Below are positions 1 through 16,147 of a stretch of 64,000 nt of DNA, in pieces (the stretch's first letter is position 1; each line of letters opens with the position of its first letter). Origin of the DNA: an uncultured bacterium (GTDB lineage Bacteria > Chlamydiota > Chlamydiia > Chlamydiales > Parachlamydiaceae); NCBI GenBank assembly GCA_964390695.1, contig CAYMKI010000002.1, forward strand, positions 6,716 to 70,715, read 5' to 3'. The notes under the pieces were generated by a model. That model did no database searches. It worked only from the letters and a program-made list of their open reading frames with translations, and was not told where the DNA came from. A program made the position numbers and the translations under genes.

Positions 1-3000
1 ATCGTCCCTATCTAATGAGTGCGCAAGCATTCTTAAAAGAATTGACGGGAGAACAGCGTACATGATAAACCTAACTGTAAATCCTCCAGGATCATCTTTT
101 ACGCTATTAATCGTCTTCCTTAACCCTTGCACGGCAGCATTTGAAAATGGTAGCAATTGGTTAATCCACTTCATCTGCTCACCGGCTACAGCAAAGTCTA
201 GTAAGTCGCGAGATTTGAATGAGGCGTAAAGCATAGCGTTATAATCGTCTAAATCTTTAGACTTAGCTTCTTTGAAAGAACTTCTGTACTGCTCTAATCG
301 AGTAGCTATTTCTCCGCTTGCTATTAAACTCCCGTACCAGTCGCTAACATTGCTCAACATTTTTCCGGGAGTTGTAATGATGTTGTTTTTGTCCTTCGCT
401 AATTCTCGAACTGCTTTATCTAACTCCTTGTAGTAAAAATCCTCACTCATTAAATAATACCCTGCTTGCCCTCCCCCTAGACTATTGTAAGCCTCTAATG
501 TTTGTTGTTTAAGATTTCGATTAATGTTTATGTCGTGCCCCGTAAACGCATTTGGTGACATTACAAATCTCGCTTGAATATCTCTAATTCTATTTTTAAT
601 CGCGAATACAGGGAAATTAATAATACCCCATCTAAGTAGGCTAGGTAGCGCTGTCAAGTATGGAGAAAGTTTTACGTTATCGGTTATATTTTTTACCGAT
701 TTGTAAACATCCGAATTTAACTTCCAATATTGTTTTTTTCCTTTATCAAATATGGTAATGGTGTTGTCTCCTGTTGATCCAACTTGAGTTCCTATTGAAC
801 CTAAAAATTTAGGATCACCTTCGTGCATTCCCCTAGCATGTACTAATAATTCTTTGAACGCTAAAAGAACATTATTCCTGTCTGACTCTCTTATTACATT
901 GGCCGTATTTCCTATTAATGACTCGTAAGGATTCTTTATTGTTTTGCTACTTCCTTTCTGTTTGTAGATTATCTCTTTAACAGAAGCTAAAGCTCCACCA
1001 GTGCTTTTTGTAAAACTAACTACCTCTTCATCTGGGGAAGATTCTGATATTCTTTGCAATGCAACATATTCTAAGTTTGTAGATTTTATTTGATTATATG
1101 ACTCTTCGCTTAATCGTCCGCTTGCAACAGCTATTTTGAGTCCAGCATCTGCGTACTCTTTATAACGTCTGGCTGACTCTTCAATTCGTTTTTTTGCATC
1201 TGGATTTTCTTGTGTGTGCTCATCTAATCTTTTATTGGCAATTGTTAAGTCTTGAAATACACCTGCTCCTGTACCAGTTAAAAAGTCTTGTCTATTTAAC
1301 TTAGAAGACATCTCAACGGTTCTTTTTGCTACCATGTAGCTAATCACTTTTTCTTGTTCATCCTTTATGGATTTTTCAGTAGAGTTGTCAAGGGATGAAA
1401 TGAGCCACTCAAAATTCATTGCCTCGCCAGTCTGCCTATCTATCAACCTATTTAATTTAGGCGCATTAGGGTCTGATGAATCAATGGGGTTATCCGGATT
1501 GATAAAACCGTTCTCAAGTATGTCTTGTATCTTACTGTTTTCCCCGGCTAATAATCTAGCAAGCATAACAGGGTCTTTCGAAGGCATTAACTTATCAATA
1601 CCTTTTTGATCTAACAAAAATTTTACGCCCTTCTGAAATGGCAATAAAGTATTCAGCCATTGTTGAGATAATCTATCAAAAATAGTCAGTTCAAAATTTT
1701 CTTTGGTAGGATTTCTCAATAGATTAGTAAAAAATCCTTTTGCTTTTTCTGGTTCAAACTGAACGTTAGACATTATTTGATGATGTCCCGACAACCCAAC
1801 GAATTTCCGAATGTCGTCACCAAATTTCCTAAGTGCTTCCTTTGTCTCACTCGGCACTGTACCCTCGAAAAGTTTTGATGTCTCAGGGTATTGTATAGAC
1901 ACCTCTGATGGGTTCACCATCCATGCCCTTATGTATTCAGCAAGACCTTCACTTAATTTATAGGCTTTCTTGTCAGACACGCCTTTACGTGGCTTAGAGC
2001 CAAATTTGCCTAGTTTATTAAGCTCTTTTTCTATGGCTGGATTTATCTTTCCTAATAAGTCAAATAAATCATCTATACTGTGCCCGACTTCGTGAGCGGT
2101 AGTGTCAAGATCACCTTGGAACTTTATTGCTATGGCTGCATTTGTAGACCGATATACCCCTAAAGCATTTCTGCGCGTGGTATTTTTTACGTAGTAGATT
2201 TTTGACTTTATGGTTTTGGAGAGGTCAATTACTATCTGCTTTAGCTTTTTTGGTTCCGCACCGTAAATAGGACTAACCGCAATACGCTCGGTTTTGTTTT
2301 TCCTTTTTGGAGATCCTATTGGGGGCTGATAAATTTTTTGAGTGCTGGCCTGCTCACCCTCATATGGATTAATATCCTTTTCTTCAATCTTCCAAACCGT
2401 CCCAGTAGTCGATTTGATTTTATATTTGCTATTCTCAAAAGTTTGTACTGTTCCTTTCGCATAGCTTCCGCTAGGAGTTATAAACTCTACAACATCTCCA
2501 CTTTTATAAGTTGTTTCCGCATCTTTTGAAATGTCTAAGTTTTCAATTTCATTTCTTTTATTCACTACCTCTTTTATCGTTTCATTAGGTATTTCTTGAA
2601 CATTTTTAAAATTAGTTTCTTCCAACTTATTAACAGAATTTATCAGGTGTGTGGAGTTTTTAAATCCATTTTCTTGAGCAATTATATTTGCTAATTTTTT
2701 CCCTTCTTTTTGTAATGTTTCATTTTTGATTTCTTCGCTTGAATATTTAATCTTTTGCTCATTGAAATATTTCTGACTTTCCTCATCCACAAATGGATTT
2801 TCTCGGTCTAGCATTGGGTCAATATAGCGGATGTTCCCTTCTGTATCTTTTATTACATTTTCTCCATGAACATCCGTAAGCCTTATCCCTAAATCAGGAT
2901 TATAAAATTGATTTTGACCGAGTGAACCTTCTGGGTGTATTTGAAAAAACCCACGTTTTGATAAGTCTTCAATTAATTCTGATCTTGGTACTGGATTTCC

Positions 3001-5649
3001 ATCAATATATGGCTGCTCGGAAACCGCTGATAGCCTACCTCCTTCTTTAGTAAATCCGATTAAATCATAAGATGTTTCAGGGAATAATGTTTTTTGAAGG
3101 TTGAGCCTATCCCAAAATTCAGACCATGAACCATGATTTGATAATCCATTTACTTTTATAACTTTATCCCCTTCTTTGTTTAGATAAACATCTTGCTCAG
3201 TCCCTCCATCTATTTTTTCACCAAGGTCTTTTTTTATGTCCTCAATGAATACCCCTGATTTTCTGGCATAAGACTCAAGTTCTTTATCTTGTTCTTTCTT
3301 TAATTGCCTTGTGCTTCTCTGTGCTCCTTTAATCTTTGGGATTGCTTCTTGAACTGATCTGGTGATGTTTTCCGCATCTTCTTGTTTGATTCTGCCTCCC
3401 TTCGGTTCTGTTCCTCGTGATAAGGGGTTAACTTCATTTCTGGTTTCATTGCTTTCTGGATTAGTTTGATTTAATGTTGGTTTTGTCTCAATTGCACCAC
3501 CTCCACTTTCAATAGGCTTAACTGGTTCTTCAACCGCTGGTTTTGCGGGTTCTTCTTTAACTGGTTGAACAGGTTGACGAACTTCTTCCTTAACTGCTTC
3601 TCCTGTGGGCTCATTTGGTTTTTCGCCTTCTTGGTAACGAACGTTTATCTTTACTTTTTGATTGCCATCTAAAATGTCCTTAGCAATTCTATGGTGCCCG
3701 TCAGTGATTACATACTTATCACCTTTTTTGATAACGGTTGGAATTCTACTGCCGGGCGAAGGGACGTAGTATTTGGAGACAAATGGTTGAGAGGGGGCTA
3801 TTTTATTAATGTCAATCTCTTCTTGAGAAGTCACATTTGACATTTCCCCTATATCTTCATAAGGATTTTCAATAGGCAATTTGAAGATATCTTTGGTAGA
3901 TATCCTTTGATCTTTTCGAATTGATTGTATTTCCCTCTCTAATTTAGCAACCTGTTTTGTTTTGTATTCTGCGGTATTGTCGTAGATACTTGTTAACTTA
4001 TCTTCTTTCGCTTTCAGTTCGCTAAACTCTTTTGGAGGATTATTTAAATCAACCTCTTCTATTTTGAGTGCTTTTTCTTTTTTCGGTTCGGCTTGTACTT
4101 GAACACTCTCTTTTTGAATATCTTTTGGAAGTGGCTGACTATCTCCTTTTCCAGTTGGCTCAACTTTAATTTCATTGGCTTGGCTTTTTAAGTACTCATC
4201 CAATATTTTCTTTGTCTCATACCGATCCTCAGTGCTCATGTTTTGCATGGCGCCCATAACTCCGGGCATCACAAATCCAACTACGAAGCCTGCGCCTGCA
4301 CCTTCAAGCATTCCTGATTTTAAGTCTCTCTCCGGATCGTATGAACCTTGCGCAATCTTGTTGGTCAAGTATTGCTGAACTGCTTCTTGGCTTGCCTCTT
4401 CTAATCCCTGAGCCGTTCCTTGTGCTGCGGCTTGTTTAATGGTTCCGATAAGTCCATTGCCAGTAACCTTGTTCAATCGAGTGAACATATTGGCTACCGG
4501 TATGACTTCCGTTAACCCTCCTGGAATGTTCTTTAGGAATACCGAGAACGCTTCATCATCTGATTTGCCTGCTGCCTTAGCAGCTTCATACTCTGGCACC
4601 GAAGCCTGCAAAGCTCCACTCACGGCCATGGGAGAAGTTAATGTGCCTACTAATTCTCTGCCTATGGATTGCTTCACAAGTCCCGTTTCTGCTGCGGCTG
4701 GGCCACCAGTCATAATCATTCCGATCATTGAGCCAAAGGCGCTGGGAACGGCTGAATTAAGAAATCCGGCTCGCTTCTCATCAATGGCCGTAATTCCTAT
4801 CTCTAAGGCTTTTTTGTCAATCCATTGCCCTAGTTGATAGGTGCTATAATTTTCAACTGGCCCATTATCAACGCCTGTTAAATCGTCAAGTTTTTTTGCG
4901 AGGATACCTACTGCCTTTGGGATAGATGTAACCGCTCCAATAAATGCTTTGTTGAATGAAGGGGCAATTTGCGAAGCATCCGCAACTATCTCACCGACAA
5001 AACCTTGATTCTCTCTCTTTCCAGTAATTTCTTCCTGAAATTCACCTACAACTCTTCTGGCATTCTTTTCAGCATCTTGAGCCCTCATAACTTGAGGGAT
5101 TTTCAAGTCTTTTATAAATGGATTCTTGAGCCCATAGTTGCCCTTGGCATCATCCTCCATGAATTGCTTGTACTGATCCTCTTGAATTGATTTAGGAAGA
5201 ACAAACTGATCTTTGTTAAGATTATCAAGAGTTTTTTGCTTGTCCTGTTCTTCTGTAAGTCCGTTATCCATTAACGGAATCTGTATGGGCTTACTTAAAT
5301 CAATCTGTCCGGGCAATCCTAATGGTTGAGGATCAGGAATATTTGTCACTAATGGCTCTGAAAAACCTTGCTGCGTACTCAAGCCATTCAGCAATTCTTG
5401 AGGAGATGAAATACTTTGCTTTTCTGGACCAACCACGCCAATAGGTAGCGCTGAGTCTTTTTTTTTTACTTTATTCTCAAATTCTTCAAATGATCCCAAT
5501 TCATATTCCTGCCCTACGCCATCGTAGAAGGCTTTCCTTTTAGATGGGTCTTGTAGTTTGGCTGCAAATTCTTCCAATGTGCCTACATCATACTTTTTAG
5601 ATACGGCTTCATGGAGAATTTTGATTTTATCTTGTTTTGGGTCGAACAT
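1..5649 (-). CDS. giant multidomain polyvalent-type virion/injected protein, partial (>=1883 aa; C-terminus lies beyond the window edge)
   Basis: Hand translation of the reverse strand from the ATG at 5649 (TAATG overlap with the upstream stop) finds no stop down to base 1 (5649 nt = 1883 codons). The ORF track omits it because it is open-ended. No other minus ORF >=60 aa exists in 5.6 kb. Gly/Ala-rich hydrophobic N-region, then ParB-like, kinase-like and HExxH modules. Confidence 0.8.
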   Translation of the reverse strand, partial: MFDPKQDKIKILHEAVSKKYDVGTLEEFAAKLQDPSKRKAFYDGVGQEYELGSFEEFENKVKKKDSALPIGVVGPEKQSISSPQELLNGLSTQQGFSEPLVTNIPDPQPLGLPGQIDLSKPIQIPLMDNGLTEEQDKQKTLDNLNKDQFVLPKSIQEDQYKQFMEDDAKGNYGLKNPFIKDLKIPQVMRAQDAEKNARRVVGEFQEEITGKRENQGFVGEIVADASQIAPSFNKAFIGAVTSIPKAVGILAKKLDDLTGVDNGPVENYSTYQLGQWIDKKALEIGITAIDEKRAGFLNSAVPSAFGSMIGMIMTGGPAAAETGLVKQSIGRELVGTLTSPMAVSGALQASVPEYEAAKAAGKSDDEAFSVFLKNIPGGLTEVIPVANMFTRLNKVTGNGLIGTIKQAAAQGTAQGLEEASQEAVQQYLTNKIAQGSYDPERDLKSGMLEGAGAGFVVGFVMPGVMGAMQNMSTEDRYETKKILDEYLKSQANEIKVEPTGKGDSQPLPKDIQKESVQVQAEPKKEKALKIEEVDLNNPPKEFSELKAKEDKLTSIYDNTAEYKTKQVAKLEREIQSIRKDQRISTKDIFKLPIENPYEDIGEMSNVTSQEEIDINKIAPSQPFVSKYYVPSPGSRIPTVIKKGDKYVITDGHHRIAKDILDGNQKVKINVRYQEGEKPNEPTGEAVKEEVRQPVQPVKEEPAKPAVEEPVKPIESGGGAIETKPTLNQTNPESNETRNEVNPLSRGTEPKGGRIKQEDAENITRSVQEAIPKIKGAQRSTRQLKKEQDKELESYARKSGVFIEDIKKDLGEKIDGGTEQDVYLNKEGDKVIKVNGLSNHGSWSEFWDRLNLQKTLFPETSYDLIGFTKEGGRLSAVSEQPYIDGNPVPRSELIEDLSKRGFFQIHPEGSLGQNQFYNPDLGIRLTDVHGENVIKDTEGNIRYIDPMLDRENPFVDEESQKYFNEQKIKYSSEEIKNETLQKEGKKLANIIAQENGFKNSTHLINSVNKLEETNFKNVQEIPNETIKEVVNKRNEIENLDISKDAETTYKSGDVVEFITPSGSYAKGTVQTFENSKYKIKSTTGTVWKIEEKDINPYEGEQASTQKIYQPPIGSPKRKNKTERIAVSPIYGAEPKKLKQIVIDLSKTIKSKIYYVKNTTRRNALGVYRSTNAAIAIKFQGDLDTTAHEVGHSIDDLFDLLGKINPAIEKELNKLGKFGSKPRKGVSDKKAYKLSEGLAEYIRAWMVNPSEVSIQYPETSKLFEGTVPSETKEALRKFGDDIRKFVGLSGHHQIMSNVQFEPEKAKGFFTNLLRNPTKENFELTIFDRLSQQWLNTLLPFQKGVKFLLDQKGIDKLMPSKDPVMLARLLAGENSKIQDILENGFINPDNPIDSSDPNAPKLNRLIDRQTGEAMNFEWLISSLDNSTEKSIKDEQEKVISYMVAKRTVEMSSKLNRQDFLTGTGAGVFQDLTIANKRLDEHTQENPDAKKRIEESARRYKEYADAGLKIAVASGRLSEESYNQIKSTNLEYVALQRISESSPDEEVVSFTKSTGGALASVKEIIYKQKGSSKTIKNPYESLIGNTANVIRESDRNNVLLAFKELLVHARGMHEGDPKFLGSIGTQVGSTGDNTITIFDKGKKQYWKLNSDVYKSVKNITDNVKLSPYLTALPSLLRWGIINFPVFAIKNRIRDIQARFVMSPNAFTGHDININRNLKQQTLEAYNSLGGGQAGYYLMSEDFYYKELDKAVRELAKDKNNIITTPGKMLSNVSDWYGSLIASGEIATRLEQYRSSFKEAKSKDLDDYNAMLYASFKSRDLLDFAVAGEQMKWINQLLPFSNAAVQGLRKTINSVKDDPGGFTVRFIMYAVLPSILLRMLAHSLDRDD
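2040..2200 (-). other. HExxH zincin-like metallopeptidase module inside the giant ORF
   Basis: FQGDLDTTAHEVGHSIDDLFD. The HEVGH codons lie at 2080-2094. Confidence 0.5.
2806..3270 (-). other. protein-kinase-like module inside the giant ORF
   Basis: GGTEQDVYLNKEGDKVIKVNG (nucleotide-loop/Lys-like) ... LTDVHGENVIKDTEGNIRYIDPM (HxxN catalytic-loop-like plus a DP metal site). Resembles polyvalent-protein kinase domains (from memory). Confidence 0.5.
3631..3800 (-). other. ParB/sulfiredoxin-like nuclease module inside the giant ORF
   Basis: Translated segment ...IPTVIKKGDKYVITDGHHRIAKDILDGNQKVKINV. The DGHHR codons lie at 3688-3702. Confidence 0.65.
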
Positions 5650-7034
5650 TAGAATCCTGCTATTTTAGTTTTGCCCGTTTTATTATTCTTATCGTATGCC
5701 TCTAAATACCTATCAAATCTATCTGCGCCAATGGAGGTCTTAGGATTTTGAGAATCCAATATTTCGCTCAAATAATACTGCGCTCTTTTTCTTGCTTCTG
5801 GTGTACTTATGTCTATATCAGATGTTACTTCTTGTTTGCCTTTATTGTAAGTGTTTTTTATGTAAGCATCCTTTAGCTGCTCAAGATTATTAGGATCAAA
5901 CTTAGGATCGGCTAAGTTTGCTTTAAATGTTAGAATGATCTTTTTTCCGTCAGCGCTATACTCTGCTTTCGATCCTTTTATTAGATTTCCTAACGCCCCA
6001 ATAGACTGTAGATTTTTTCTGTTTACAATCTTGTCAGTTATGTCTCTTCTGGCTTCTAGGTCTTCTATTTTATGTCCAAAGTCTATGCCCCATTTGCTGT
6101 TGGTTATTTTTTCTTTAAGATCATTAGTATTAGGCTTATTACGAAGATCAAACTTTTGCTCTGTCTTATCAAAAACAGGAAGTACTTGTTTTAAGAATTC
6201 TTTTTGCGAATTTTCATCATCTGGTTTTCCTGTTTTTTCTATTGAATGCATCTCCATCAACTGCCGCATATCTGGATTTGCATTTGCTAACCTGTATACA
6301 TCAGGACTAATATCGTTTAGTATTTTATTGCCATTTTTATCCAATTCAAACTCTACAACCCCATTTGGATTTAATTTTGTTCGGTAGTTTAACTTTGATG
6401 TTAGCGTAGAGGTAACATCATAATCACCTGCTATCTGTTTTTTGAATTGCTCAGTAGCTTGCTCGTCTAATGTGTTCATAAAAGAACGAGCCACAAAAGA
6501 CGGATTCAGATTTTTAGGATGATCAACGATTGACTCAATCTGCGCGATCCCTGCGCGAATATCATTGTCTGGTTTTAATCTACCCTCATTGTCAAACAAA
6601 GTGTCTCTGATCACACTTCTGGCCGAAGGATCAAACCGTCCTGACTTTATGTTGTCTTCAACTATCTTGCTGGCTTCATCATAAGTCTGCTTCCATGCAT
6701 CGTATTCTCTTCTGCGAGAATCAAGATTGGCTTGCAGTCTTTTACCAAGCATATCTGCCTTGCGAACGTCTCCGGTTTCCAATACCTGACGAACAGGCGC
6801 ACGAAGTTCGGCTTCAACGGAATCCCCTAAACGTTGATTTAATTGAGTGAACTTGGTTTCTGGGTTATACTTGTCGGCATAGTCCATCACCGAATCTCTG
6901 TCCTTTCTTTTTTGAGCTTGCACCGCAGCATCATTTTTTGATTGCTGGGCCTGCTGCATCATAAATACTTGAAGAGGATTTATGCTTCCCCCAAGAATGG
7001 TTGCGTTTCCGAGTGCTTCTTTGCCTACTGCCAT
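5649..7034 (-). CDS. hypothetical protein (probable internal virion/ejection protein by position)
   Basis: 461-aa ORF, translationally coupled on both sides within the structural operon. Confidence 0.6.
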   Translation of the reverse strand: MAVGKEALGNATILGGSINPLQVFMMQQAQQSKNDAAVQAQKRKDRDSVMDYADKYNPETKFTQLNQRLGDSVEAELRAPVRQVLETGDVRKADMLGKRLQANLDSRRREYDAWKQTYDEASKIVEDNIKSGRFDPSARSVIRDTLFDNEGRLKPDNDIRAGIAQIESIVDHPKNLNPSFVARSFMNTLDEQATEQFKKQIAGDYDVTSTLTSKLNYRTKLNPNGVVEFELDKNGNKILNDISPDVYRLANANPDMRQLMEMHSIEKTGKPDDENSQKEFLKQVLPVFDKTEQKFDLRNKPNTNDLKEKITNSKWGIDFGHKIEDLEARRDITDKIVNRKNLQSIGALGNLIKGSKAEYSADGKKIILTFKANLADPKFDPNNLEQLKDAYIKNTYNKGKQEVTSDIDISTPEARKRAQYYLSEILDSQNPKTSIGADRFDRYLEAYDKNNKTGKTKIAGF

Positions 7035-7035
7035 T

Positions 7036-7815
7036 TTATTTGCGGATTCTGATTCTTGGTACCGAACCTTTGAAAGATGGACCTAAATCCGTTTTAATCC
7101 TTCTGTTAAAACCAGATTGGTAGCCATTTAAAATAGGAAATTTTGGCTCTGAATCTGTTGTAACTGGATCTTCTTGCGCCTGATCTTGTGTGCCAGTCAA
7201 AAACTTAGCGGTCGTATTTCCTCCTGCTGCTTTTGACAATAGTCCAGCCGTAGCCAAATTGTTTATTCCGCTAAAGAGATTTGTATTGCCGGCATTATCC
7301 AAAGCATTTTTTGTCTGCAAGTACTCAGCCTGATTTTGTCTGTCATTCTGAGCGATCGCATTGTTAGCGTTGCTTAGTCGGCCAAAGGCATTCTCGCTGA
7401 ATTGATCACCTTGTGCTTGCACTTGGGCACTGGCATCATTGGCCTGAGCGGTGGAGCCTGCTGCTACTGCTGCTATTTTATTGGCGTCACCTCCAAACAT
7501 CCGCTGGGCACCCGCAATTTGATTAGCCTGATTCCTTCTGATACGTTCTTCCGATTGGGCTGCGCCAGGCGCTCTTCTGGAATACGCTTGTTGTTTCGCC
7601 AAATCACGATTCATAAGCAACTCCGGAGGAATGTAATTGCTCTTTTTTAGATTGTTAGCCTCGTTTTTCTGAAAAAATCCTCCTATTGTTTGTGCGAGTG
7701 CCGGTATAGCAGCTATGGCCAATGGTCCTAAAAGCAGATATCCATTAGTTCTTTTGGATAAAAGAGACGCTACAATACTCCAGAACAAAAATTGAAATAT
7801 GACTATCTCTTCCAT
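7036..7815 (-). CDS. membrane-anchored Gln/Ala/Asn-rich hypothetical protein (probable internal virion protein)
   Basis: 259-aa ORF with hydrophobic N-terminal segments followed by a low-complexity Q/A/N-rich region. Confidence 0.55.
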   Translation of the reverse strand: MEEIVIFQFLFWSIVASLLSKRTNGYLLLGPLAIAAIPALAQTIGGFFQKNEANNLKKSNYIPPELLMNRDLAKQQAYSRRAPGAAQSEERIRRNQANQIAGAQRMFGGDANKIAAVAAGSTAQANDASAQVQAQGDQFSENAFGRLSNANNAIAQNDRQNQAEYLQTKNALDNAGNTNLFSGINNLATAGLLSKAAGGNTTAKFLTGTQDQAQEDPVTTDSEPKFPILNGYQSGFNRRIKTDLGPSFKGSVPRIRIRK

Positions 7816-7838
7816 AGCGGGTGAATTTAGGCGTTAAT

Positions 7839-10800
7839 TTACTGAAAACTTTGCATACTTGGAGTATAAAATACGGTTATCGACTTCATGCTGTTGTAAC
7901 CAGTGACATTGCTGACAATGGTTATGTAGGCGCTTTGCCCACGGATAGAATCAGGACTCTTGTATTTTGACTCCGTGGTGGATCCAAATGAAGCATCGTT
8001 TATGTTCCGGAAAAATGCCGATCGGTAGGCGCTTGCCCTCTTCTGGAAATCCAAATAGTTGATTCTTGTCTGCAACTGACCGCCTCGGACATGGTACAGA
8101 AGAACGATATCCTCATTTGTGCCTGCAGTTGTGAACAATGTTTCCACATCGACCTCGATCGCGTTCCAGATGCATTCCAAAGATTGTCCCGGTGCTATCT
8201 CAAACTCTAAAGTTCGGCTATACTGAGTGCCAAACCAGTTATTCCAGTTCGCCTCTGGGGTCTGAATCCAGAATTGGCCACCAAGAAAGGCTATTTGCTT
8301 TTGTTCTAATATCCCCCAAAGAGTAGGTTTTATGTCGGCTTGGCAAACCCATGCATTGCTGGGCTCATGGAAGTATAGCGTGTAACCGGTGTTGTCCGAT
8401 ATTTTAACGAAACTGATCACATAGCAATCGTACTGAGGATCCCATCCTGCCACTATTCGGCTGTCGGAGCCCAAAGCTAAATGTGTTTCACAAAGGTTGC
8501 TCACCAATCCTTTGACTCCGTACTGTGAGATAACCGTCAATCCATCTTGTGACCTGCGGACTATAACCCCCTTGCGAGCATCGAGGAAATAAACTCTGGA
8601 GTCTCGGGAAACAATACTTCTCGGGTGGATGGAACCGTGGCCCCCTTGGTACTTTTGATCATCCCCGATAACGCTGTCAGTCTTTGTCAGAAATGAGCTT
8701 GATCCAGTATTAACAAATCCTTCGCCAACATAAACGCTCGAAGTCTCAGCTTCTGATATTGCAACCATGACTTGTCCTGCTTCTACTATTGAAACGCCTG
8801 GGCCGTTTTCTATCGGAAGAGCATATTCATTCAAAGCGTAGAAGGTATTCAATCCAAGTTGCTCCGAATTCTGAATGTACTGCTCACCAAATCTTAGGTA
8901 TGTGGTTTTGGCTATTTGCCGAGAATCTGATTTTATGACTGATCTTGCCCCAGGAGTAACCCAATTAGGAAAGTTCTTTGATAAAGTCATTTGCAGGGTT
9001 GCTATATTATAAAAATCTGTGTAGCCTCCGTAATTGTTTGCAAATGGATCTGTTGCTGAGTACGCACCAACTACTTTAGTTACGGTGAAATTGCCATACT
9101 CTACATCACCTTGAATTAAAGAACTTGCGGCATAATCTACATATTCAAAAAATGGCTCTTGTTCTACTTTCTTGGGAGTGTATATTTCAAATCGAATAGA
9201 AGTTCTATCGCTTGTTAACATTGTATACTTTGTGTCAAAATTAACAACGTCTATAAAAACAAATCTTCCTTCTTGAGATTTAATAGCGTAATCCTGTGCA
9301 ACTGACTCTCCAGAAGCATCATTTTTATTTAAGAACAGTCTAATCTTGTCACCTGCTGAAAAAGTATATCCTAAATTATTGGTTGTTAATAATCCAATGT
9401 CAATAGCTGTTCCTTCCGCTCCAAATGAAGCAAGTGTTTTGCTATATGATAGAACTCCGGAGGCATTTTTCTTGTAGTAGTAAACATCTTGAGTATATCC
9501 GCCCACAAAAAAAGTGGCGGTCAAATCTTTAGTGACAACAATTTTTGCCGTAGCCCATGCCGGAAGTGTTGGCAATGAACTTACTCTAATTCTGTATAAG
9601 ACAAGTGGATCGGATGGTATCGTTACAGTTTGCTCTTCAATGACAGAATAAACTCTTCCAAAAGAATCAGCTAGTAATACTCCAACAGTATACTTTCCTC
9701 CTGGCCTTGCCACGCGAAACACTTTTTCGTCTCTGCTTACGGTCTGAGCTTCTATGGTCAATGACAATGATCCTGTATAAGTAATATCTCTACCCTCAAC
9801 ATTATTCAATAGAAATATTCTATTCTTAAAAACGTTTAAACTTCTGCATGACAACGGAACTGAGTCGTTCCACTTGAATGAATCCGCATCAGGAATGGTA
9901 AACAAATAGTTATCATTGTAGAATAAATGGCTTGTTGTAAACGAACCTGTTTTTTCAACCCTGTAAATAATAACTTCATTAGATCCATTAATCCGAACTG
10001 CATACTCAATTTTTTTAACCGTAGATGGCGGAGTCCCTGACCTAGATACAGTTATCTTATTTGGACCATCTAAAATTGTAACCACAACGGGCTGACCAAC
10101 GCCAGCAACCACCAAAGAGTATAATCGAAGCACTTTACCTACATAAAAAAATCCATCCTTAACATAAACATTGGTTGTTGCTGTTGCTGCTGCTGCAAAA
10201 TCTGCTGCTCTAGCCCATGCGCCTGCGGCAATAACCCATACTCCATTTTCTTCCATCGTAGTTTGGCCTAGCAACACAATGCGCTGACCAGCAAACACAG
10301 TTCTTCCGTCAACAGAGCCCGGCACACCTGTTAATGCCAAATTTGTATATGTAACGCATTCCACATTCAGAGCATAAGGGCTCCCTGCTGTTGCTTGAGG
10401 ATGCACCCAGTCATTTGCTAAAGTGCTCCAAGGTCCAAAGACACTATAATCGTTGAGTTCATAAACATATCTGTGGGTAAACTGAAAATAGTTTCCGTAT
10501 ATGTTATTGTTGGTAACCGCATAGTCGTATTCAAGAACCCATGTAATCGGATTGACGGGCGGATTTTTAATTAATGCTAACTCTATTGCCGTAGGGGTAT
10601 ACGTTGCCCCAGCGATTGCCTTAACTACATCTATCCTTTGAATATCCGTCCGGCCATTAGTCCATATTAAAATATCCCCTACTATGTCCGCCTCAACTAC
10701 ATCGGTAGCCAGAAAGTCTAAAACAGCATTTCTTAAAACTACTGTGATAGCGCCATTTTTGTATTGGTAGATAGTATTATTTGAGGCCGTGGAATTAGCG

Positions 10801-11048
10801 ACAAAAAAAAAGGCTCTGTTGCCGGTTCTGTCTTGTTTGAATCCGATCGCTGTATTGGTGCCGCTTGGAAGAGAGTTTGTCACCAAGGCATTCCCGTACA
10901 TATTTGAGATCACGTCCATTAAAGACTTTGACCCTGCCCCCGGCTGAACAGTTATTCCGTTTTTAAGCAGGCGATAGTCTCCTGGCTTCAGTGTGCGAAC
11001 ATCTGAATCCAAATTTATCCTCCGGAATAGCTGCTTGAAAAAATTCAT
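7839..11048 (-). CDS. large virion structural protein (tail/nozzle-type, 1069 aa)
   Basis: Long beta-rich ORF in the structural operon. No specific motif recognised. Confidence 0.6.
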   Translation of the reverse strand: MNFFKQLFRRINLDSDVRTLKPGDYRLLKNGITVQPGAGSKSLMDVISNMYGNALVTNSLPSGTNTAIGFKQDRTGNRAFFFVANSTASNNTIYQYKNGAITVVLRNAVLDFLATDVVEADIVGDILIWTNGRTDIQRIDVVKAIAGATYTPTAIELALIKNPPVNPITWVLEYDYAVTNNNIYGNYFQFTHRYVYELNDYSVFGPWSTLANDWVHPQATAGSPYALNVECVTYTNLALTGVPGSVDGRTVFAGQRIVLLGQTTMEENGVWVIAAGAWARAADFAAAATATTNVYVKDGFFYVGKVLRLYSLVVAGVGQPVVVTILDGPNKITVSRSGTPPSTVKKIEYAVRINGSNEVIIYRVEKTGSFTTSHLFYNDNYLFTIPDADSFKWNDSVPLSCRSLNVFKNRIFLLNNVEGRDITYTGSLSLTIEAQTVSRDEKVFRVARPGGKYTVGVLLADSFGRVYSVIEEQTVTIPSDPLVLYRIRVSSLPTLPAWATAKIVVTKDLTATFFVGGYTQDVYYYKKNASGVLSYSKTLASFGAEGTAIDIGLLTTNNLGYTFSAGDKIRLFLNKNDASGESVAQDYAIKSQEGRFVFIDVVNFDTKYTMLTSDRTSIRFEIYTPKKVEQEPFFEYVDYAASSLIQGDVEYGNFTVTKVVGAYSATDPFANNYGGYTDFYNIATLQMTLSKNFPNWVTPGARSVIKSDSRQIAKTTYLRFGEQYIQNSEQLGLNTFYALNEYALPIENGPGVSIVEAGQVMVAISEAETSSVYVGEGFVNTGSSSFLTKTDSVIGDDQKYQGGHGSIHPRSIVSRDSRVYFLDARKGVIVRRSQDGLTVISQYGVKGLVSNLCETHLALGSDSRIVAGWDPQYDCYVISFVKISDNTGYTLYFHEPSNAWVCQADIKPTLWGILEQKQIAFLGGQFWIQTPEANWNNWFGTQYSRTLEFEIAPGQSLECIWNAIEVDVETLFTTAGTNEDIVLLYHVRGGQLQTRINYLDFQKRASAYRSAFFRNINDASFGSTTESKYKSPDSIRGQSAYITIVSNVTGYNSMKSITVFYTPSMQSFQ

Positions 11049-11051
11049 TCC

Positions 11052-11840
11052 TTAAATGCTTTGAACCAATCTATAAGAATCTCTCATCACCTCAAGAACG
11101 TCTGCGGCTGAAACCTTCTGTATTCTGTTTTGAACTTTGTAGTACTCGTTCCAATAATCATCTTTTGCTTCTTTCTTTTCAGCCTGATTTGAACTCTTGG
11201 AATATTTATGGCGCTGCCAGTGGGCATACAACTTCAATAGCTTGGCCGCATAGATGTTTACGACTGTCTTCTCAGATGGATTGATACCGTCACTGATATA
11301 CTCCAAATAGATTGAAGTATCTCCTTTAACTCTGGGGCTGAACTGAATCTCTCTGCGCTCAGGATTCATCTTAAAGTAGCCAACGCCATTTCCTTTCACT
11401 GTCAATCCGTACAATTGTCCCGGATCTTCACCGCGAGAATTCCAATTGTAGAAATAGTATTTGTTAGGGTTGCTTGGATCAGGAACGATTTCTTCTTCGG
11501 TAGGCTCTGGAGGATCAGACTCTAATAAATTTTGATCCGGCAAAGCAATACGCTCGTCATTTGTGAAGACTCGTATTTCGCCATTGACAACAACGCCTAT
11601 TTGAACAAAGTCAACGTAGTCAAGCGGAAGCTCAATAGATTTCCAAGCGGTTAGAGGCAAATATGCTGTTTTTACTTCTTGTGCTAAGTCCAGATGAAAA
11701 TCAAGATAACCATCAATCACCCAATGACGAAATTGCTCGTACCTCTCCATGGAAGCACCAATATCCATTAGCGCACTTTTGACTACTTGGTCAAGCGTTA
11801 CAAATCCTCTTTGGATATGACCTTGTTTTGTAGTACTCAT
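11052..11840 (-). CDS. hypothetical structural protein
   Basis: 262-aa ORF, tightly packed in the operon. Confidence 0.55.
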   Translation of the reverse strand: MSTTKQGHIQRGFVTLDQVVKSALMDIGASMERYEQFRHWVIDGYLDFHLDLAQEVKTAYLPLTAWKSIELPLDYVDFVQIGVVVNGEIRVFTNDERIALPDQNLLESDPPEPTEEEIVPDPSNPNKYYFYNWNSRGEDPGQLYGLTVKGNGVGYFKMNPERREIQFSPRVKGDTSIYLEYISDGINPSEKTVVNIYAAKLLKLYAHWQRHKYSKSSNQAEKKEAKDDYWNEYYKVQNRIQKVSAADVLEVMRDSYRLVQSI

Positions 11841-12379
11841 ACAAAGGCGTATTTATTTTCAATTTTATTTTCAATTAAAGCAGATTTATAAGCTGAATAA
11901 GCCTCTTCTTCTGAATGAAAAGTTCCTAAACTCTTATTCTTTTTATCCACATAAATACTAGCGTACCATTTTCTATCTCTTTTAATATAAGACACGCCTG
12001 GATATTTACTGCTCTTACCTCTTCTCAAGTGCCCATGTAAAGCATTTTCATTATTATTAATCCATTCTAGATTTGAAGGCACATTATTTTTCCTGTCTCC
12101 ATCAATATGATTAACCTGTTTTGATAATTTTATATTTTCAACGAAAGCAAGAGCAACAAGTCTATGGACTTTAATCCCTTTAGTTCTCCCGTGTTTTGAT
12201 AAAAAGCATTGATTATAACCGTCATTATCACTGAATTTTACTATGGATTCTTTTCTTGAGATAAACCCAGAATAATTTCCACTATTTTCGTAGGTTCTTG
12301 CCAATGACTTAACTCTCCCCAAATTGCTCACTTGGTAAAGCCCTTCGTAACCTTCAATATCTTTCCAGATTTCTTCCAT
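11837..12379 (-). CDS. HNH homing endonuclease (NUMOD4 + HNH + AP2-like DNA-binding domain)
   Basis: WKDIEGYEGLYQVSNLGRVKS (NUMOD4); HRLVALAFV...VNHIDGDRKNNVPSNLEW (HNH); YPGVSYIKRDRKWYASI...GTFHSEEEA (AP2). Confidence 0.85.
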   Translation of the reverse strand: MEEIWKDIEGYEGLYQVSNLGRVKSLARTYENSGNYSGFISRKESIVKFSDNDGYNQCFLSKHGRTKGIKVHRLVALAFVENIKLSKQVNHIDGDRKNNVPSNLEWINNNENALHGHLRRGKSSKYPGVSYIKRDRKWYASIYVDKKNKSLGTFHSEEEAYSAYKSALIENKIENKYAFV

Positions 12380-13652: not shown

Positions 13653-14206
13653 TATGAAGCGGCTTTACCAAAAGGTCTTAATGTAGCTGCGCGGATCAAT
13701 TTGACGTTTCCTGCAGTTGCTATCTGTATGGTTTTGATAACGCCTGGAAACGTATAAACTACATCCTTGGCAAAGTCCGTAAGGGATACGCCTGCAGAAG
13801 TAAATCCGCCACCTTGAAGGTTTGGATCCCAGAATGTAATGGTCACATTTGCCGCACTCAAGTCGGCTCCAACTGGGGTAAATGCATCCCAAGCGCCTTC
13901 CCCACCCGTTTGCGACCATGTTCCGAAGATACCTTCCGCAACAAATGGCTTGTTTATGACCACGCGATTTGCGTCAATTACATACAAAACCCGAGTTGTG
14001 CCATTGTAATTGGTGGTTCCTGCAATGACAATTGGTGAGCCTTTTTTAAGGCCATGATCAGTATCCGTCATAACGGCTTTTCCTGCCCATCTGCCGCCTG
14101 CCACCGACCATGCTGCTGTCACGGTTCCTGTAAGGCCAGCCAGCCCAATATCGTCAGTTCCTTTATCGGCTGAAAAGATTGAAGATGCTTTGTAAATTGA
14201 TCCCAT
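13652..14206 (-). CDS. hypothetical structural protein
   Basis: 184-aa Gly/Thr/Ala-rich ORF. Confidence 0.55.
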   Translation of the reverse strand: MGSIYKASSIFSADKGTDDIGLAGLTGTVTAAWSVAGGRWAGKAVMTDTDHGLKKGSPIVIAGTTNYNGTTRVLYVIDANRVVINKPFVAEGIFGTWSQTGGEGAWDAFTPVGADLSAANVTITFWDPNLQGGGFTSAGVSLTDFAKDVVYTFPGVIKTIQIATAGNVKLIRAATLRPFGKAAS

Positions 14207-14252
14207 GGCTTTTTTTAATAAAATTAGACAATCTTTGAATATAGTGCAAAAG

Positions 14253-14894
14253 TCACCTTTTACGGGCGACTTGCATCTTTAGAACTGAATTAATCTCTAT
14301 CAACTTATTCTCATGCGTTAGTTGATAGGTACTTGTTTCTTTCCACTTGCGAAAAGTTATCATTTTCCAAAACCACTTGTCCGGCCTGCTCCTAATGTCT
14401 ATACCGGTGATAACGTCAGTTTGTTTAAATCGACTAGAATCATTCACATAGAAGCGAAGATCGTTATGCTTGTCTTTGTATTCAAATAATCTAAGGGTAG
14501 TGTCTTTCGGGTGAACAGTTGAGTGAACAGGATCATCCATCACGCTATCTACTTTCGATGTGGTGTTAAATGTAGTGAGAGACTCTACTTTTTTCAACTT
14601 CACGTTAAATGCCTTCTCAAGATTGAATCTTTCAAGTTTAGCAATTTTATCAAAGTTCTTACGGTCCAACTCCTGATTTTGAATGACTATAACTGCGTCA
14701 CCTAATTTGTTTTTGTACTCGGTGACCTCCGCTTCTTTTTTGTCGACAAGTGACAAGGCCGCATCCATACCCTTAGCATTTTCTTCTTTTTGTATCCGCT
14801 GGGAATCGCCCCATTGATACATAACCCATAACAAAACTAAAAGAATGCCTATTGCGGCAAACTTCCAATGCTTTAGTAAAAATGCTTGTACCAT
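14253..14894 (-). CDS. N-terminally membrane-anchored protein downstream of the endolysin (spanin-like/lysis accessory candidate)
   Basis: WKFAAIGILLVLLWVMY TM segment followed by a charged, coil-like region. The call rests on its position directly after the endolysin. Confidence 0.45.
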   Translation of the reverse strand: MVQAFLLKHWKFAAIGILLVLLWVMYQWGDSQRIQKEENAKGMDAALSLVDKKEAEVTEYKNKLGDAVIVIQNQELDRKNFDKIAKLERFNLEKAFNVKLKKVESLTTFNTTSKVDSVMDDPVHSTVHPKDTTLRLFEYKDKHNDLRFYVNDSSRFKQTDVITGIDIRSRPDKWFWKMITFRKWKETSTYQLTHENKLIEINSVLKMQVARKR

Positions 14895-14897
14895 TGA

Positions 14898-15440
14898 TTA
14901 TTTATTTGTGTCAATGTCAACCAATAAAACTTTCTTCGTATTTTCTAAATACTTTAAGCGATCTGCGTAGCCATTCAAGCCCCCATTGATTCGCTTGGTA
15001 ATCTTCTCGAAGTCCATAACGTCAGCCAATACGTTTAACTTCTTAGTATTCCAAAACCACCCAGCCGAAAAGGCAGCATATAAGGGTTGCTCTAAAAGTT
15101 CTGGTTTAGCGATAAGATCAACACCTATATACTTGCCCAACGCTTGATAGTTTGCGCGGCCTGTGATTTGAATTAAACCCCTACCTTTGAACTTTACGCC
15201 ATCACCTACATAAATATTACCAAGATCTTTGCGGCCTTCGTAGGCTTCTCCGGTGGCTAATTCCTTCACCCATTTTAATGATCCTGATTCGTGTGCTAAT
15301 TGAGCCAGAAAGCAAGCTATTCTTTTAGATGTATTGATTGAATAATGTTCAAGTGTCCTATTAATTGGATCAATGAATCGATCAATATTTGCCTGTGTTG
15401 CTGCTGGCATGATAGCCTTTAATTGCTCCTTAGTAATCAT
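14898..15440 (-). CDS. endolysin, glycoside hydrolase family 19 (chitinase-like)
   Basis: CFLAQLAHESGSL...YEGRKDLGN...FKGRGLIQITGRANY...AGWFWN...INGGLNG: a typical GH19 phage lysin signature. Confidence 0.85.
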   Translation of the reverse strand: MITKEQLKAIMPAATQANIDRFIDPINRTLEHYSINTSKRIACFLAQLAHESGSLKWVKELATGEAYEGRKDLGNIYVGDGVKFKGRGLIQITGRANYQALGKYIGVDLIAKPELLEQPLYAAFSAGWFWNTKKLNVLADVMDFEKITKRINGGLNGYADRLKYLENTKKVLLVDIDTNK

Positions 15441-15658
15441 TTCTTTTCAGCTATTTCTTTGAGTGCGTCCAATTCGTTTTTGATGAAGATGTCCAACCTG
15501 TTGTTTATACCCTTTACATCATCTTCAATTCGCGTCATGCCGTTTTTAATCGACATCAGTCCGCTAATCTTAGCATTGTTCTGAATGGTTGTTAGGCTTA
15601 TCCAAGCCACCCATCCAGTAAAAAGAACTCCTATAACTGCGTAGATTTCTGCTCCCAT
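15437..15658 (-). CDS. holin candidate (single TM plus coiled C-terminus)
   Basis: 73 aa; TM IYAVIGVLFTGWVAWISL; overlaps the endolysin start. Confidence 0.5.
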   Translation of the reverse strand: MGAEIYAVIGVLFTGWVAWISLTTIQNNAKISGLMSIKNGMTRIEDDVKGINNRLDIFIKNELDALKEIAEKK

Positions 15659-15780
15659 TGATCGCGTATTTTTTTTTCAATTTCTCTTATTTTATCTCTC
15701 TGCCTTTTTGCGAACCATGTCAGCAAACCCATTACCAAGAACAGAATTATAATGACAAAGCAAGCAGCAAATTCACTCAT
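15631..15780 (-). CDS. small TM protein (holin/antiholin candidate)
   Basis: Start refined to MSEFAACFVIIILFLVMGLLTW (ATG at 15780, overlapping the upstream stop as ATGAGTGA). Confidence 0.45.
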   Translation of the reverse strand: MSEFAACFVIIILFLVMGLLTWFAKRQRDKIREIEKKIRDQWEQKSTQL

Positions 15781-16147
15781 CTTTAGCGTCCCAAACAATC
15801 CAGCACACAAATAACACTTGAATAACATTAAATGAAAACGGTATATCTAAAACCCTAAACCATGTCGAATTGTATGTTAGCAAGTAGTCAAAGAAATCAA
15901 ACACCGACAACGAAAAGAAAAACGATAGCTGCCGTCTGATTAATTTGATTTCCATGAACATGAGATAGTACAAATACACGAAAGCCAAGTGTTCACACAA
16001 GTAGTAAACGTATTCCTGAACAGTACATTTAGCGTCTGAGAACAAAAAAAAGTCCATGGACTTTCCGTATGGTATCGCTTTTAAGAACACCAACTGCATC
16101 ACCGTAATGAATGCCAGAAACGCTATTTTCTTTTGTCTGTCGTTCAT
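15773..16147 (-). CDS. multi-pass small membrane protein
   Basis: Start refined to MNDRQKK (ATGA overlap with the upstream stop at 16144-16147). Several hydrophobic helices. Confidence 0.5.
   Translation of the reverse strand: MNDRQKKIAFLAFITVMQLVFLKAIPYGKSMDFFLFSDAKCTVQEYVYYLCEHLAFVYLYYLMFMEIKLIRRQLSFFFSLSVFDFFDYLLTYNSTWFRVLDIPFSFNVIQVLFVCWIVWDAKDE

Follow-up and report, generated by a model that had tools for sequence, protein, structure and literature searches.

A phage-type polyvalent protein of 2,140 residues, with Kinase-PolyVal and LPD38 domains, at the end of the virion operon of a Bacteroidota phage

Results

The DNA analysed here, hereafter the window, is a stretch of 64,000 nucleotides (G000:C2:6716-70715) taken from a phage contig of approximately 70 kb that carries terminase, portal and conserved neighbour genes. 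The source is a Bacteroidota phage known from this contig in a metagenome bin, and its terminase is only 25-28% similar to those of Flavobacteriia podoviruses. No exact overlap joins the two ends of the contig, and both ends lie inside the same 60-nt repeat unit.

The largest gene in the window is the last of a leftward virion operon. It occupies positions 1 to 5,649 of the minus strand, where an earlier note on this DNA had described an ORF of 1883 codons (residues 1-1883) that is open at the left edge. When the left flank of the contig was added, as that note had advised, the ORF was found to end at C2:5942 with 2140 codons and, therefore, only 257 codons lie beyond the window; the complete gene spans G000:C2:5942-12364 and encodes 2,140 residues. 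Its start codon and the stop codon of the 461-aa gene upstream overlap in the TAATG arrangement that had been reported (...ggattcTAATGttcgac). This upstream gene and two others, of 259 and 1069 aa, are translationally close-packed at positions 5,649 to 11,048 of the minus strand. The 1069-aa protein matches phrog_14478 ("virion structural protein", E 1.4e-44), and homologues of the 259-aa and 1069-aa proteins are found upstream of the giant gene in the related viral contigs L005-L009, L025 and L029. The giant gene is on the same strand as, and downstream of, the terminase, the portal, virion-structural PHROGs and the endolysin. A frame of 6.4 kb that remains open in DNA of 41% GC, together with relatives that are 37-56% identical across approximately 1000 residues, is not the product of chance, and the ORF is confirmed as a real gene with correct coordinates.

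The protein begins with a small helical module (residues 7-62; positions 5,464-5,631, minus strand) that matches phrog_24532 (E 1.5e-21). This module is N-terminal in many giant proteins, with 20 matches among them, and the AF2 model gives it four helices with pLDDT of 82-87. Residues 7-61 are 67-69% identical to gp122 of phage phi18:3 and gp119 of phage phi46:3; in these Cellulophaga phages of the Pachyviridae, the module is a separate gene of 102-103 aa that adjoins the giant gene.

It is followed by a conserved, all-helical, Gly/Ala-rich region, here called module N (residues 113-530; positions 4,060-5,313, minus strand), which is common to 35 giant proteins with E values down to 9e-114. 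The hydrophobic Gly/Ala-rich segments that had been noticed near the N-terminus are found at residues 200-500, and the most hydrophobic stretch, the top KD window at residues 446-470 (positions 4,240-4,314), falls inside this module. Module N matches phrog_10691 (E 9e-6) and phrog_2206 (E 5e-8), the latter in the N-terminal part of proteins annotated as virion RNA polymerase. The copy of Pfam that was searched holds no family for the N-terminal helical module. The AF2 model reaches pLDDT of 85-95 across residues 230-480, and a Foldseek search with it returned no fold match in the PDB at E<=1e-3. Among the weaker Foldseek matches of this model and of that of the C-terminal module, the only thematically plausible ones were chains of an M. 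tuberculosis regulator (6cz6, 6d2s), with a probability of 0.2-0.44. The Pro/Glu/Lys linker described after the hydrophobic segments corresponds to linkers rich in K, E, P and Q; these four amino acids make up 0.44 of residues 501-600.

Within the region that follows, the DGHHR motif lies at residues 650-654 (positions 3,688-3,702), exactly where it had been reported. It is part of a candidate mini ParB/Srx-like segment (residues 610-675; positions 3,625-3,822, minus strand) in which IDINKIAPSQP precedes DGHHR. The ParB-like nuclease that the earlier note had proposed here is not established. The match of the segment to ParBc_2 (PF08857) has an E value of 0.006-0.012 and 16.2-17.2 bits, which is under the gathering threshold of 23.6, and ParB_N (PF02195) gave no HMM match. 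The segment is an orphan: no homologues were found by a word-index search of 5.8 billion clusters covering small proteins and giants, by a scan of viral contigs, or by phmmer against 194 giants and 68 viral loci. A jackhmmer search seeded with the ParB_N of a related giant, the profile of which drew on related giants and host ParBs, likewise did not recruit it from the database. DGHHR follows two predicted strands (639-642 and 645-648), and the segment lacks the helix that usually separates strand 1 from the DGHHR strand; the AF2 model of this region, made without homologues, has pLDDT of 25-30 and is for this reason unusable. All this is consistent with a chance resemblance or a degraded remnant within a linker, in which case the kinase described below would be the only enzyme of this part of the protein. 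Such a reading is quite possible, although a targeted test argues against it. The ParB profile from the jackhmmer search, which is independent of the segment, gives it a weak signal of 13.8 bits, whereas none of 500 full shuffles scored above 7.1, and 13.8 bits is reached by 13 of 1000 shuffles in which DGHHR was held fixed (p about 0.013). Also, in a BLASTP comparison with the ParB_N segment of giant P0174 (E 0.001), both EIDINKI and DGHHR are aligned, and ParB domains are common in polyvalent proteins.

The kinase-like module placed next along the protein was called correctly. Residues 784-946 (positions 2,812-3,300, minus strand) match Kinase-PolyVal (PF18762) with E 2.5e-33 and 115.7 bits, well over the cut-off of 27 bits, across profile positions 1-155 of 160. 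The domain consists of the N-lobe and catalytic loop of a protein kinase, with no C-lobe, and extends over approximately 165-200 residues before a linker begins. Alignment to 16 kinase domains, drawn from 15 giants, shows that the residues of the ATP site and of catalysis (E818, K832, Q879, D926, N931 and D944) are conserved, and they fit the features described for Kinase-PolyVal, a family reported mainly from (pro)phages of Bacteroidetes and Verrucomicrobia (PMC5512222). Judged by these residues, the domain is a predicted Ser/Thr/Tyr-type kinase that is truncated but catalytically complete. Between the kinase and the C-terminal module there is a small segment that looks beta-rich (residues ~1040-1095; positions 2,365-2,532, minus strand) and has no Pfam family; residues 975-1095 are common only to P0021 (E 1.5e-10) and, weakly, to P0029.

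The HEVGH motif, at residues 1186-1190 (positions 2,080-2,094) as previously located, heads a conserved C-terminal module of approximately 1,040 residues. The motif belongs to a region (residues 1120-1295; positions 1,765-2,292, minus strand) with HEVGHSIDD at 1186-1194 and EGLAE at 1234-1238. In 17 relatives, H1186, E1187, H1190, D1193 and E1234/E1238 are invariant, as is D1194. The AF2 model, with pLDDT of 80-95, places the HExxH on a helix that follows a three-stranded sheet and the Glu on the next helix (H41-51, E55-58, E69-72, E77-80, H86-101 and H132-150 in model numbering). A profile search of the PDB returned zincins as the best, though marginal, matches (E 0.019-0.16), among them the lethal-factor catalytic domain (E 0.019) and thermolysin (E 0.07). 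No peptidase family of Pfam is above threshold, with Reprolysin_3 at E 0.055 and no other at E<=5. The combination of HExxH with an Asp at the third position past the motif and a Glu further on matches a widespread phage-type variant of the metallopeptidase (MPTase) described in PMC5512222. The zincin that had been suggested at this position is thus supported by residue invariance, by predicted topology and, marginally, by the PDB profile matches, as a probable zincin-like metallopeptidase.

The rest of the C-terminal half, described in the earlier note as uncharacterised, turns out to be a module that is known and widely conserved, with Pfam LPD38 at its end. Its helical part in the window (residues 1482-1883; positions 1-1,206, minus strand) matches phrog_9854 (E 1.7e-44), and outside the window the module runs on to residue 2140, with LPD38 (PF18857) at residues 1882-2042 (E 2.4e-25; 90.2 bits against a cut-off of 27; profile positions 1-179 of 189). 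For the approximately 600 residues between the MPTase and LPD38, no Pfam family was found in the copy searched. At the 50% cluster level, searches with the module gave 1528 matches with E<=1e-3, most of them to the HExxH region. Its AF2 model (mean pLDDT 79.5, pTM 0.70) has no Foldseek match in the PDB at E<=1e-3, and 78 matches in BFVD at the same threshold, mostly to phage proteins named "large polyvalent protein associated domain". One of these is a protein of phage PTXU04, which we take to be gp25, with a fold match at E 4.3e-26 and TM of 0.58/0.55 over approximately 1180 columns; at the BLAST level, no sequence similarity between the PTXU04 protein and the giant protein was detected.

The closest relatives of the N-terminal module, the kinase cassette and the C-terminal module are each found in different giant proteins. 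The C-terminal module is 37-56% identical to that of giants carrying ART-PolyVal, zeta toxin, GGACT, SNF2 or RadC in place of the kinase, and InPase is another cassette domain among its relatives. Conversely, the kinase is 60-75% identical to that of giants with another C-terminal part. The architecture is a conserved N-terminal module, a swappable middle cassette with Pro/Glu/Lys linkers on its flanks, and a conserved C-terminal module.

Discussion

The giant protein is a typical phage-type polyvalent protein, a class described in 2017 (Iyer et al., J Bacteriol, PMC5512222). With 2140 aa, it combines Kinase-PolyVal, a zincin-like HExxH domain, LPD38 and a possible ParB-like piece, it is encoded at a late/virion location, and it has class-specific LPD and PolyVal domains in architectures that vary around shared modules. 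With the published class it shares the giant multi-domain polypeptide in the late/virion block, Kinase-PolyVal, the probable MPTase, the LPD38 end and the varying cassettes. It differs in having no MuF, ART, SNF2 or methylase domain, and in that its ParB-like piece is an orphan and not of the DdrB-ParB family. The proposal of a polyvalent protein in a virion operon is supported, since Kinase-PolyVal and LPD38 are both diagnostic of the class and far above their cut-offs, and since relatives swap the effector cassette. The domain combination that had been singled out is less unusual than was implied, given that the C-terminal half is a known LPD38-bearing module with more than 1500 relatives at the 50% cluster level. 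Overall, the earlier interpretation is partly supported.

Two other identities were considered and rejected because the domains that define them are absent. An N4-like virion RNA polymerase (vRNAP) has to be discarded, with no T7-like single-subunit RNA polymerase domain, no RNAP family of Pfam, no sequence match in the PDB (phmmer with the whole protein found nothing) and a phrog_2206 match that is N-terminal only. For a tape measure protein, no family was found in Pfam, PHROGs or NCBIfam, and the matches of the C-terminal module are to polyvalent proteins, podoviral ones in many cases. The likeness to the vRNAP of coliphage N4 (gp50) is weak at the sequence level: it is limited to residues 385-797, which align with profile positions 338-669 of the 3406 of phrog_2206 and partly fall in low-complexity linker. 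Nonetheless, the two share a logic of an N-terminal helical injection region, a catalytic middle and a C-terminal MPTase region, and in N4 the C-terminal region with the MPTase is required for encapsidation (PMC5512222).

Gene order in the Cellulophaga phages phi18:3, phi19:3 and phi46:3 is comparable, with a giant gene at the end of the structural block and a small gene immediately before it (gene sets gp122 and gp123; gp119, gp120 and gp121). The giant gp123 of phi18:3, in the equivalent position, is a structural (virion) protein verified by MS/MS, and gp121 of phi46:3 is homologous to residues ~1643-1938 of the protein studied here (HMM E 1.2e-20; BFVD E 3e-9). In these phages, in contrast, each module has a gene of its own, the HExxH is missing from gp123 and gp120, and neither gp120 nor gp123 has homology to the giant protein that is detectable by BLASTP or hhalign; for phi18:3, only the small module of the neighbouring gp122 is held in common. 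The "structural protein" labels of the small genes of phi46:3 and phi19:3 cite gene numbers that do not match the MS-verified list of phi18:3, and these labels were not relied on.

Two other phages provide functional parallels. Gene 25 of Escherichia phage PTXU04 encodes a putative polyvalent protein of 2,198 aa, similar in size to the giant protein and from a phage of another host phylum; it is a "Fit" gene in CRISPRi-ART that is needed for plaque formation, and its knock-down strongly lowers plating efficiency (PMC11879866). In the short-tailed E. coli phage phi24B, gp47 carries LPD5, LPD1, LPD38 and a MuF-C metallopeptidase, and it has been proposed as an encapsidated ejection protein because it is present in the virion proteome and invisible in the cryo-EM reconstruction of capsid and tail (bioRxiv 10.64898/2026.04.10.717836). 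By its published domain list, gp47 is also an LPD38-bearing giant with a metallopeptidase, and it differs in its other LPD domains, in the MuF-C type of its peptidase and in having no kinase.

From these comparisons, the giant protein is probably (about 70%) a three-part polyvalent protein that is packed in the capsid and ejected as a carrier, delivering its kinase at infection. It would be made late, together with the virion proteins, and by analogy with other LPD38 proteins would be packed into the capsid through its conserved C-terminal module and ejected alongside the DNA. The proposal is that ejection with the DNA would allow the kinase to phosphorylate host proteins ahead of any phage gene expression, presumably for takeover or counter-defence. 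A possible function of the zincin domain is to cleave the polyprotein, or it may contribute to packaging or ejection in some other way.

Because PTXU04 gp25 is essential, the conserved module may do more than act as a carrier and have its own function in virion structure or in ejection. Taken further, the giant protein could be mainly an essential ejection or structural component, with its N- and C-terminal modules forming or extending a trans-envelope conduit for a short-tailed phage, the zincin perhaps aiding the crossing of the cell wall and the kinase a dispensable passenger. Besides the knock-down phenotype of gp25, this is in line with the much wider distribution of the conserved modules compared with that of any single cassette (the 1528 matches above), with the conduit role that the phi24B authors propose for their LPD38 giant, and with the hydrophobic Gly-rich helices at residues 446-470 and 1856-1876. 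However, the KD maxima of these helices are only 1.5-1.6, with no clear transmembrane topology, and Foldseek against the PDB gave no fold match to any solved ejection protein or channel. We regard a mainly structural function as unlikely; it is, moreover, compatible with effector delivery and largely overlaps the carrier explanation. It is far less probable still that the protein is never packaged and acts late in the cytoplasm as a multi-enzyme protein, for instance in superinfection exclusion, late host shut-off or modification of progeny DNA or protein. The phage is known here from its contig alone, Pfam finds in the giant protein no MuF domain, the portal-associated module typical of many polyvalent proteins, and gp121 of phi46:3, which is homologous to part of the C-terminal module, bears only the annotation "hypothetical". 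Against this stand the position of the giant gene, last in a structural operon and translationally coupled, and the detection of the phi24B LPD38 giant in virions.

A more speculative extension of the carrier model concerns the cassette, for which two frameworks are observed: the zincin and LPD38 C-terminal module present here, and a second C-terminal part of approximately 1000 residues without HExxH in giants P0019-P0031. The kinase cassette with its orphan mini ParB/Srx-like piece could conceivably be a mobile, pre-packaged counter-defence unit that hops between these two unrelated frameworks for virion cargo, with the truncated piece serving as a new nucleotide-binding or DNA-tethering partner of the kinase and not as a nuclease. 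We consider this improbable.

Being a typical member of its class, the giant protein is a good new example of it, and it opens neither a new class nor a new question. It provides a clean and complete example of a polyvalent protein from a Bacteroidota phage, with a three-part mosaic that can be read from the sequence. That the kinase keeps 60-75% identity among giants that are otherwise unrelated supports cassette exchange, as was suggested in 2017. Delivery together with the DNA, if it takes place, would let the kinase act ahead of phage gene expression, which bears on how bacterial defences may be pre-empted.

Extent and genomic context of the giant gene

The largest ORF of the window, as the earlier note stated, is a minus-strand frame whose 1883 in-window codons extend from position 5649 leftwards to the window edge, but it is not open-ended. 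With the left flank included (C2:1-13000, C2 being the phage contig, of which the window covers 6716-70715), the ORF ends at C2:5942. Only 257 codons lie outside the window, and the complete protein, P0002 (gene C2:5942-12364, minus strand), has 2140 residues. Its start codon overlaps the stop codon of the upstream 461-aa gene, in agreement with the TAATG coupling that had been described. Given that plus-strand genes converge on it at its downstream side, this gene is the last of the leftward operon. The motif coordinates read from the sequence are all exact, and correspond to residues 650-654 for DGHHR (a ParB/Srx-type motif), 784-946 for the kinase and 1186-1190 for HEVGH (an HExxH motif). 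The Gly/Ala-rich hydrophobic stretches were also found, at residues 200-500 with a hydrophobicity peak at 446-470, as were the K/E/P/Q-rich linkers.

Contig C2 (70,764 bp, 41% GC) carries, on the same strand as this gene, a terminase, a portal, an endolysin and virion-structural PHROGs. Compared with terminases of Flavobacteriia phages, among them the podoviruses phi38:1 and elemo, its terminase shows 25-28% identity. Related viral contigs have the genes in the same order (1069-aa protein, 259-aa protein, third gene, giant, terminase and portal), and the genomic relatives are mostly from Bacteroidota, with integrated copies among them. Both ends of C2 (positions 1-119 and, beyond the right edge of the window, the final ~58 nt) lie in one 60-nt tandem repeat unit (TCACTTCGATACCAGAAGG...) within a repeat-protein ORF. 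This shared repeat suggests that C2 is a complete phage genome, either circular or terminally redundant, with the break in the repeat. An HNH endonuclease gene (window 11837-12379, minus strand; phrog_59, E 6.7e-39) lies between virion structural genes; it may be a homing endonuclease that inserted there as a free-standing gene.

Domains of P0002

Two Pfam families match P0002 well above their cut-offs of 27 bits: Kinase-PolyVal (PF18762, residues 784-946, E 2.5e-33, 115.7 bits) and LPD38 (PF18857, E 2.4e-25, 90.2 bits). PHROGs matches cover residues 7-62 (phrog_24532, E 1.5e-21) and 1482-2028 (phrog_9854, E 1.7e-44). In two families of phage giants (3,400-3,900 residues), the N-terminal part weakly matches the N-terminal helical region of P0002; phrog_2206 (E 5e-8), one of the two, carries the annotation virion RNA polymerase. 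Searches of P0002 against NCBIfam and PDB sequences gave no match.

The kinase-like module proposed earlier is borne out by the Pfam match and by its catalytic residues. In an alignment with 16 kinase domains taken from 15 other giants, E818 (ahead of strand 2), K832, Q879, the D926-x4-N931 catalytic loop and D944 are conserved, and therefore the domain looks catalytically competent as judged from sequence. Iyer et al. give these features for this truncated kinase clade, which they report mostly from (pro)phages of Bacteroidetes and Verrucomicrobia (PMC5512222). Residues ~975-1095 (window 2365-2700, minus strand), which separate the kinase from the zincin-like domain, comprise a Lys/Asn-rich part and, after it, a short segment of beta-like appearance (SGDVVEF...WKIEEKD). 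They have no assigned family and recur in one other giant, P0021, and weakly in P0029.

The HEVGH motif stands at the head of a C-terminal module of ~1,040 residues (~1096-2140) that shares 37-56% identity with 16 other giants. A1185, H1186, E1187, H1190, D1193, D1194, E1234, G1235, A1237 and E1238 are invariant, and this holds in a wider set of 25 sequences. Residues 560-1480, used as the query of an exhaustive search, retrieved 1528 cluster representatives (E<=1e-3), and among the 150 matches listed almost all cover residues ~1100-1480. The AlphaFold2 model of the module (30 sequences in the alignment; mean pLDDT 79.5, pTM 0.70) opens with a helix and three strands, after which come the HExxH helix and, further on, a helix with EGLAE; this is the zincin core described in PMC5512222. 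D1193 is the Asp that, in a widespread phage-type MPTase variant, lies three residues past HExxH (PMC5512222). Against PDB sequences, a profile of this region gave the anthrax lethal-factor catalytic domain as its best match (E 0.019, both helices covered), with thermolysin also on top (E 0.07-0.14), although these E-values are marginal; Iyer et al. likewise found lethal-factor and thermolysin relatives of the N4 vRNAP MPTase by HHpred (PMC5512222). Because of these marginal values, and because Foldseek of the whole 1045-residue model against PDB gave no significant match, the predicted zincin identity is well supported but short of proven.

The ParB-like segment is the weak point of the earlier finding. 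The top Pfam match of this segment, ParBc_2, is sub-threshold (16-17 bits versus a cut-off of 23.6, E 0.006-0.012), AlphaFold2 gives a pLDDT of 25-30, and no homologues of residues 585-690 were found by a word-index search of small and giant proteins, in viral contigs, or among 194 giants and 68 viral loci. An independent profile, iterated from the ParB_N domain of the related giant P0174 (PF02195 E 1.7e-5), drew in further giants together with ParB-like ORFs of the host itself, but left this segment out. Targeted scoring with the same profile gave 13.8 bits, aligned over PTVIKKGDKYVITDGHHRIAKDILDGNQKVKINVR, versus a maximum of 7.1 bits in 500 full shuffles; when only the flanks were shuffled around an unchanged DGHHR, 13.8 bits was reached in 13 of 1000 cases. 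BLASTP against the P0174 segment (E 0.001) aligns both EIDINKI and DGHHR. The helix usual after strand 1 is absent. The segment is probably a truncated ParB/Srx-fold domain, a statement that concerns the fold and not nuclease activity.

Mosaic structure

Local BLASTP of P0002 against all relatives gave different closest relatives for each part: P0024, P0027-P0033 and others for the N-terminal helical module (residues ~113-530, identity up to 47%), P0019-P0025 for the kinase cassette (~707-975, 60-75%), and P0003-P0018 for the C-terminal module (~1096-2140, 32-56%). Relatives sharing the last have other effectors in their middle part (SNF2, GGACT, ART-PolyVal, zeta toxin, RadC, ddrB-ParB, InPase). 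Those with the kinase and the N-terminal module have another C-terminal part of ~1000 residues, without HExxH or LPD38. In a giant from a Terrimonas rubra prophage, the kinase and the C-terminal module are colinear with those of P0002 (36% identity). For these reasons, the gene is, at the sequence level, a conserved frame with a swappable cassette, the kinase having moved between frames. P0019-P0031 form a second family of metagenomic giants (1,750-3,200 residues) that have the N-terminal helical module in common and in many cases also the kinase; their C-terminal ~1000 residues showed no Pfam family, HExxH or LPD38.

Against predicted viral structures, the C-terminal module gave 78 matches (E<=1e-3), mostly 'large polyvalent protein associated domain' proteins, including those of Escherichia phage PTXU04 (E 4.3e-26) and Cellulophaga phage phi46:3 gp121 (E 3e-9), the latter borne out by the module HMM (E 1.2e-20). 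In phi46:3, gp121 (13942-15822) is a separate 626-aa gene, homologous to residues ~1643-1938. Since phi18:3 gp123 is unrelated over that part, a swap of the C-terminal part has taken place within Pachyviridae.

Proposed packaging and function

P0002, encoded in the late operon, combines an LPD38 module with a kinase that is intact and a zincin-like site that is conserved. For a short-tailed phage of E. coli, virion proteomics showed a high abundance of an LPD38 giant with a metallopeptidase. This giant is missing in the reconstructed shell, and the authors proposed that it is an encapsidated ejection protein (bioRxiv 10.64898/2026.04.10.717836). PTXU04 gp25 is needed to form plaques (PMC11879866), and N4 vRNAP depends on its C-terminal region with the MPTase for encapsidation and on the helical region at its N-terminus for injection (PMC5512222). 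MS/MS has verified the giant gp123 of Cellulophaga phage phi18:3 as a virion protein; it has no detectable homology to P0002. The small gene adjoining it is 69% identical to residues 7-61. The GenBank 'structural protein' labels of the small genes phi46:3 gp119 and phi19:3 gp128 cite non-corresponding phi18:3 gene numbers and look shifted by one gene; in phi18:3 itself, the verified protein is the giant and the small gp122 is labelled 'hypothetical'.

On the basis of these systems, we propose that P0002 would be packaged via its conserved C-terminal module and ejected together with the DNA, that the kinase would phosphorylate host targets early, and that the zincin may cleave the polyprotein. 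The main alternative places the emphasis on the conserved modules themselves as an essential ejection device.

In all its robust features P0002 agrees with the phage-type polyvalent proteins that Iyer et al. described in 2017, in line with the concept invoked in the earlier note, and it is a further member of a kind already known. What is specific to it is the three-way mosaic, for which two alternative C-terminal parts exist, the orphan ParB-like piece, and the fusion into the giant of a module that in Pachyviridae is a separate gene.
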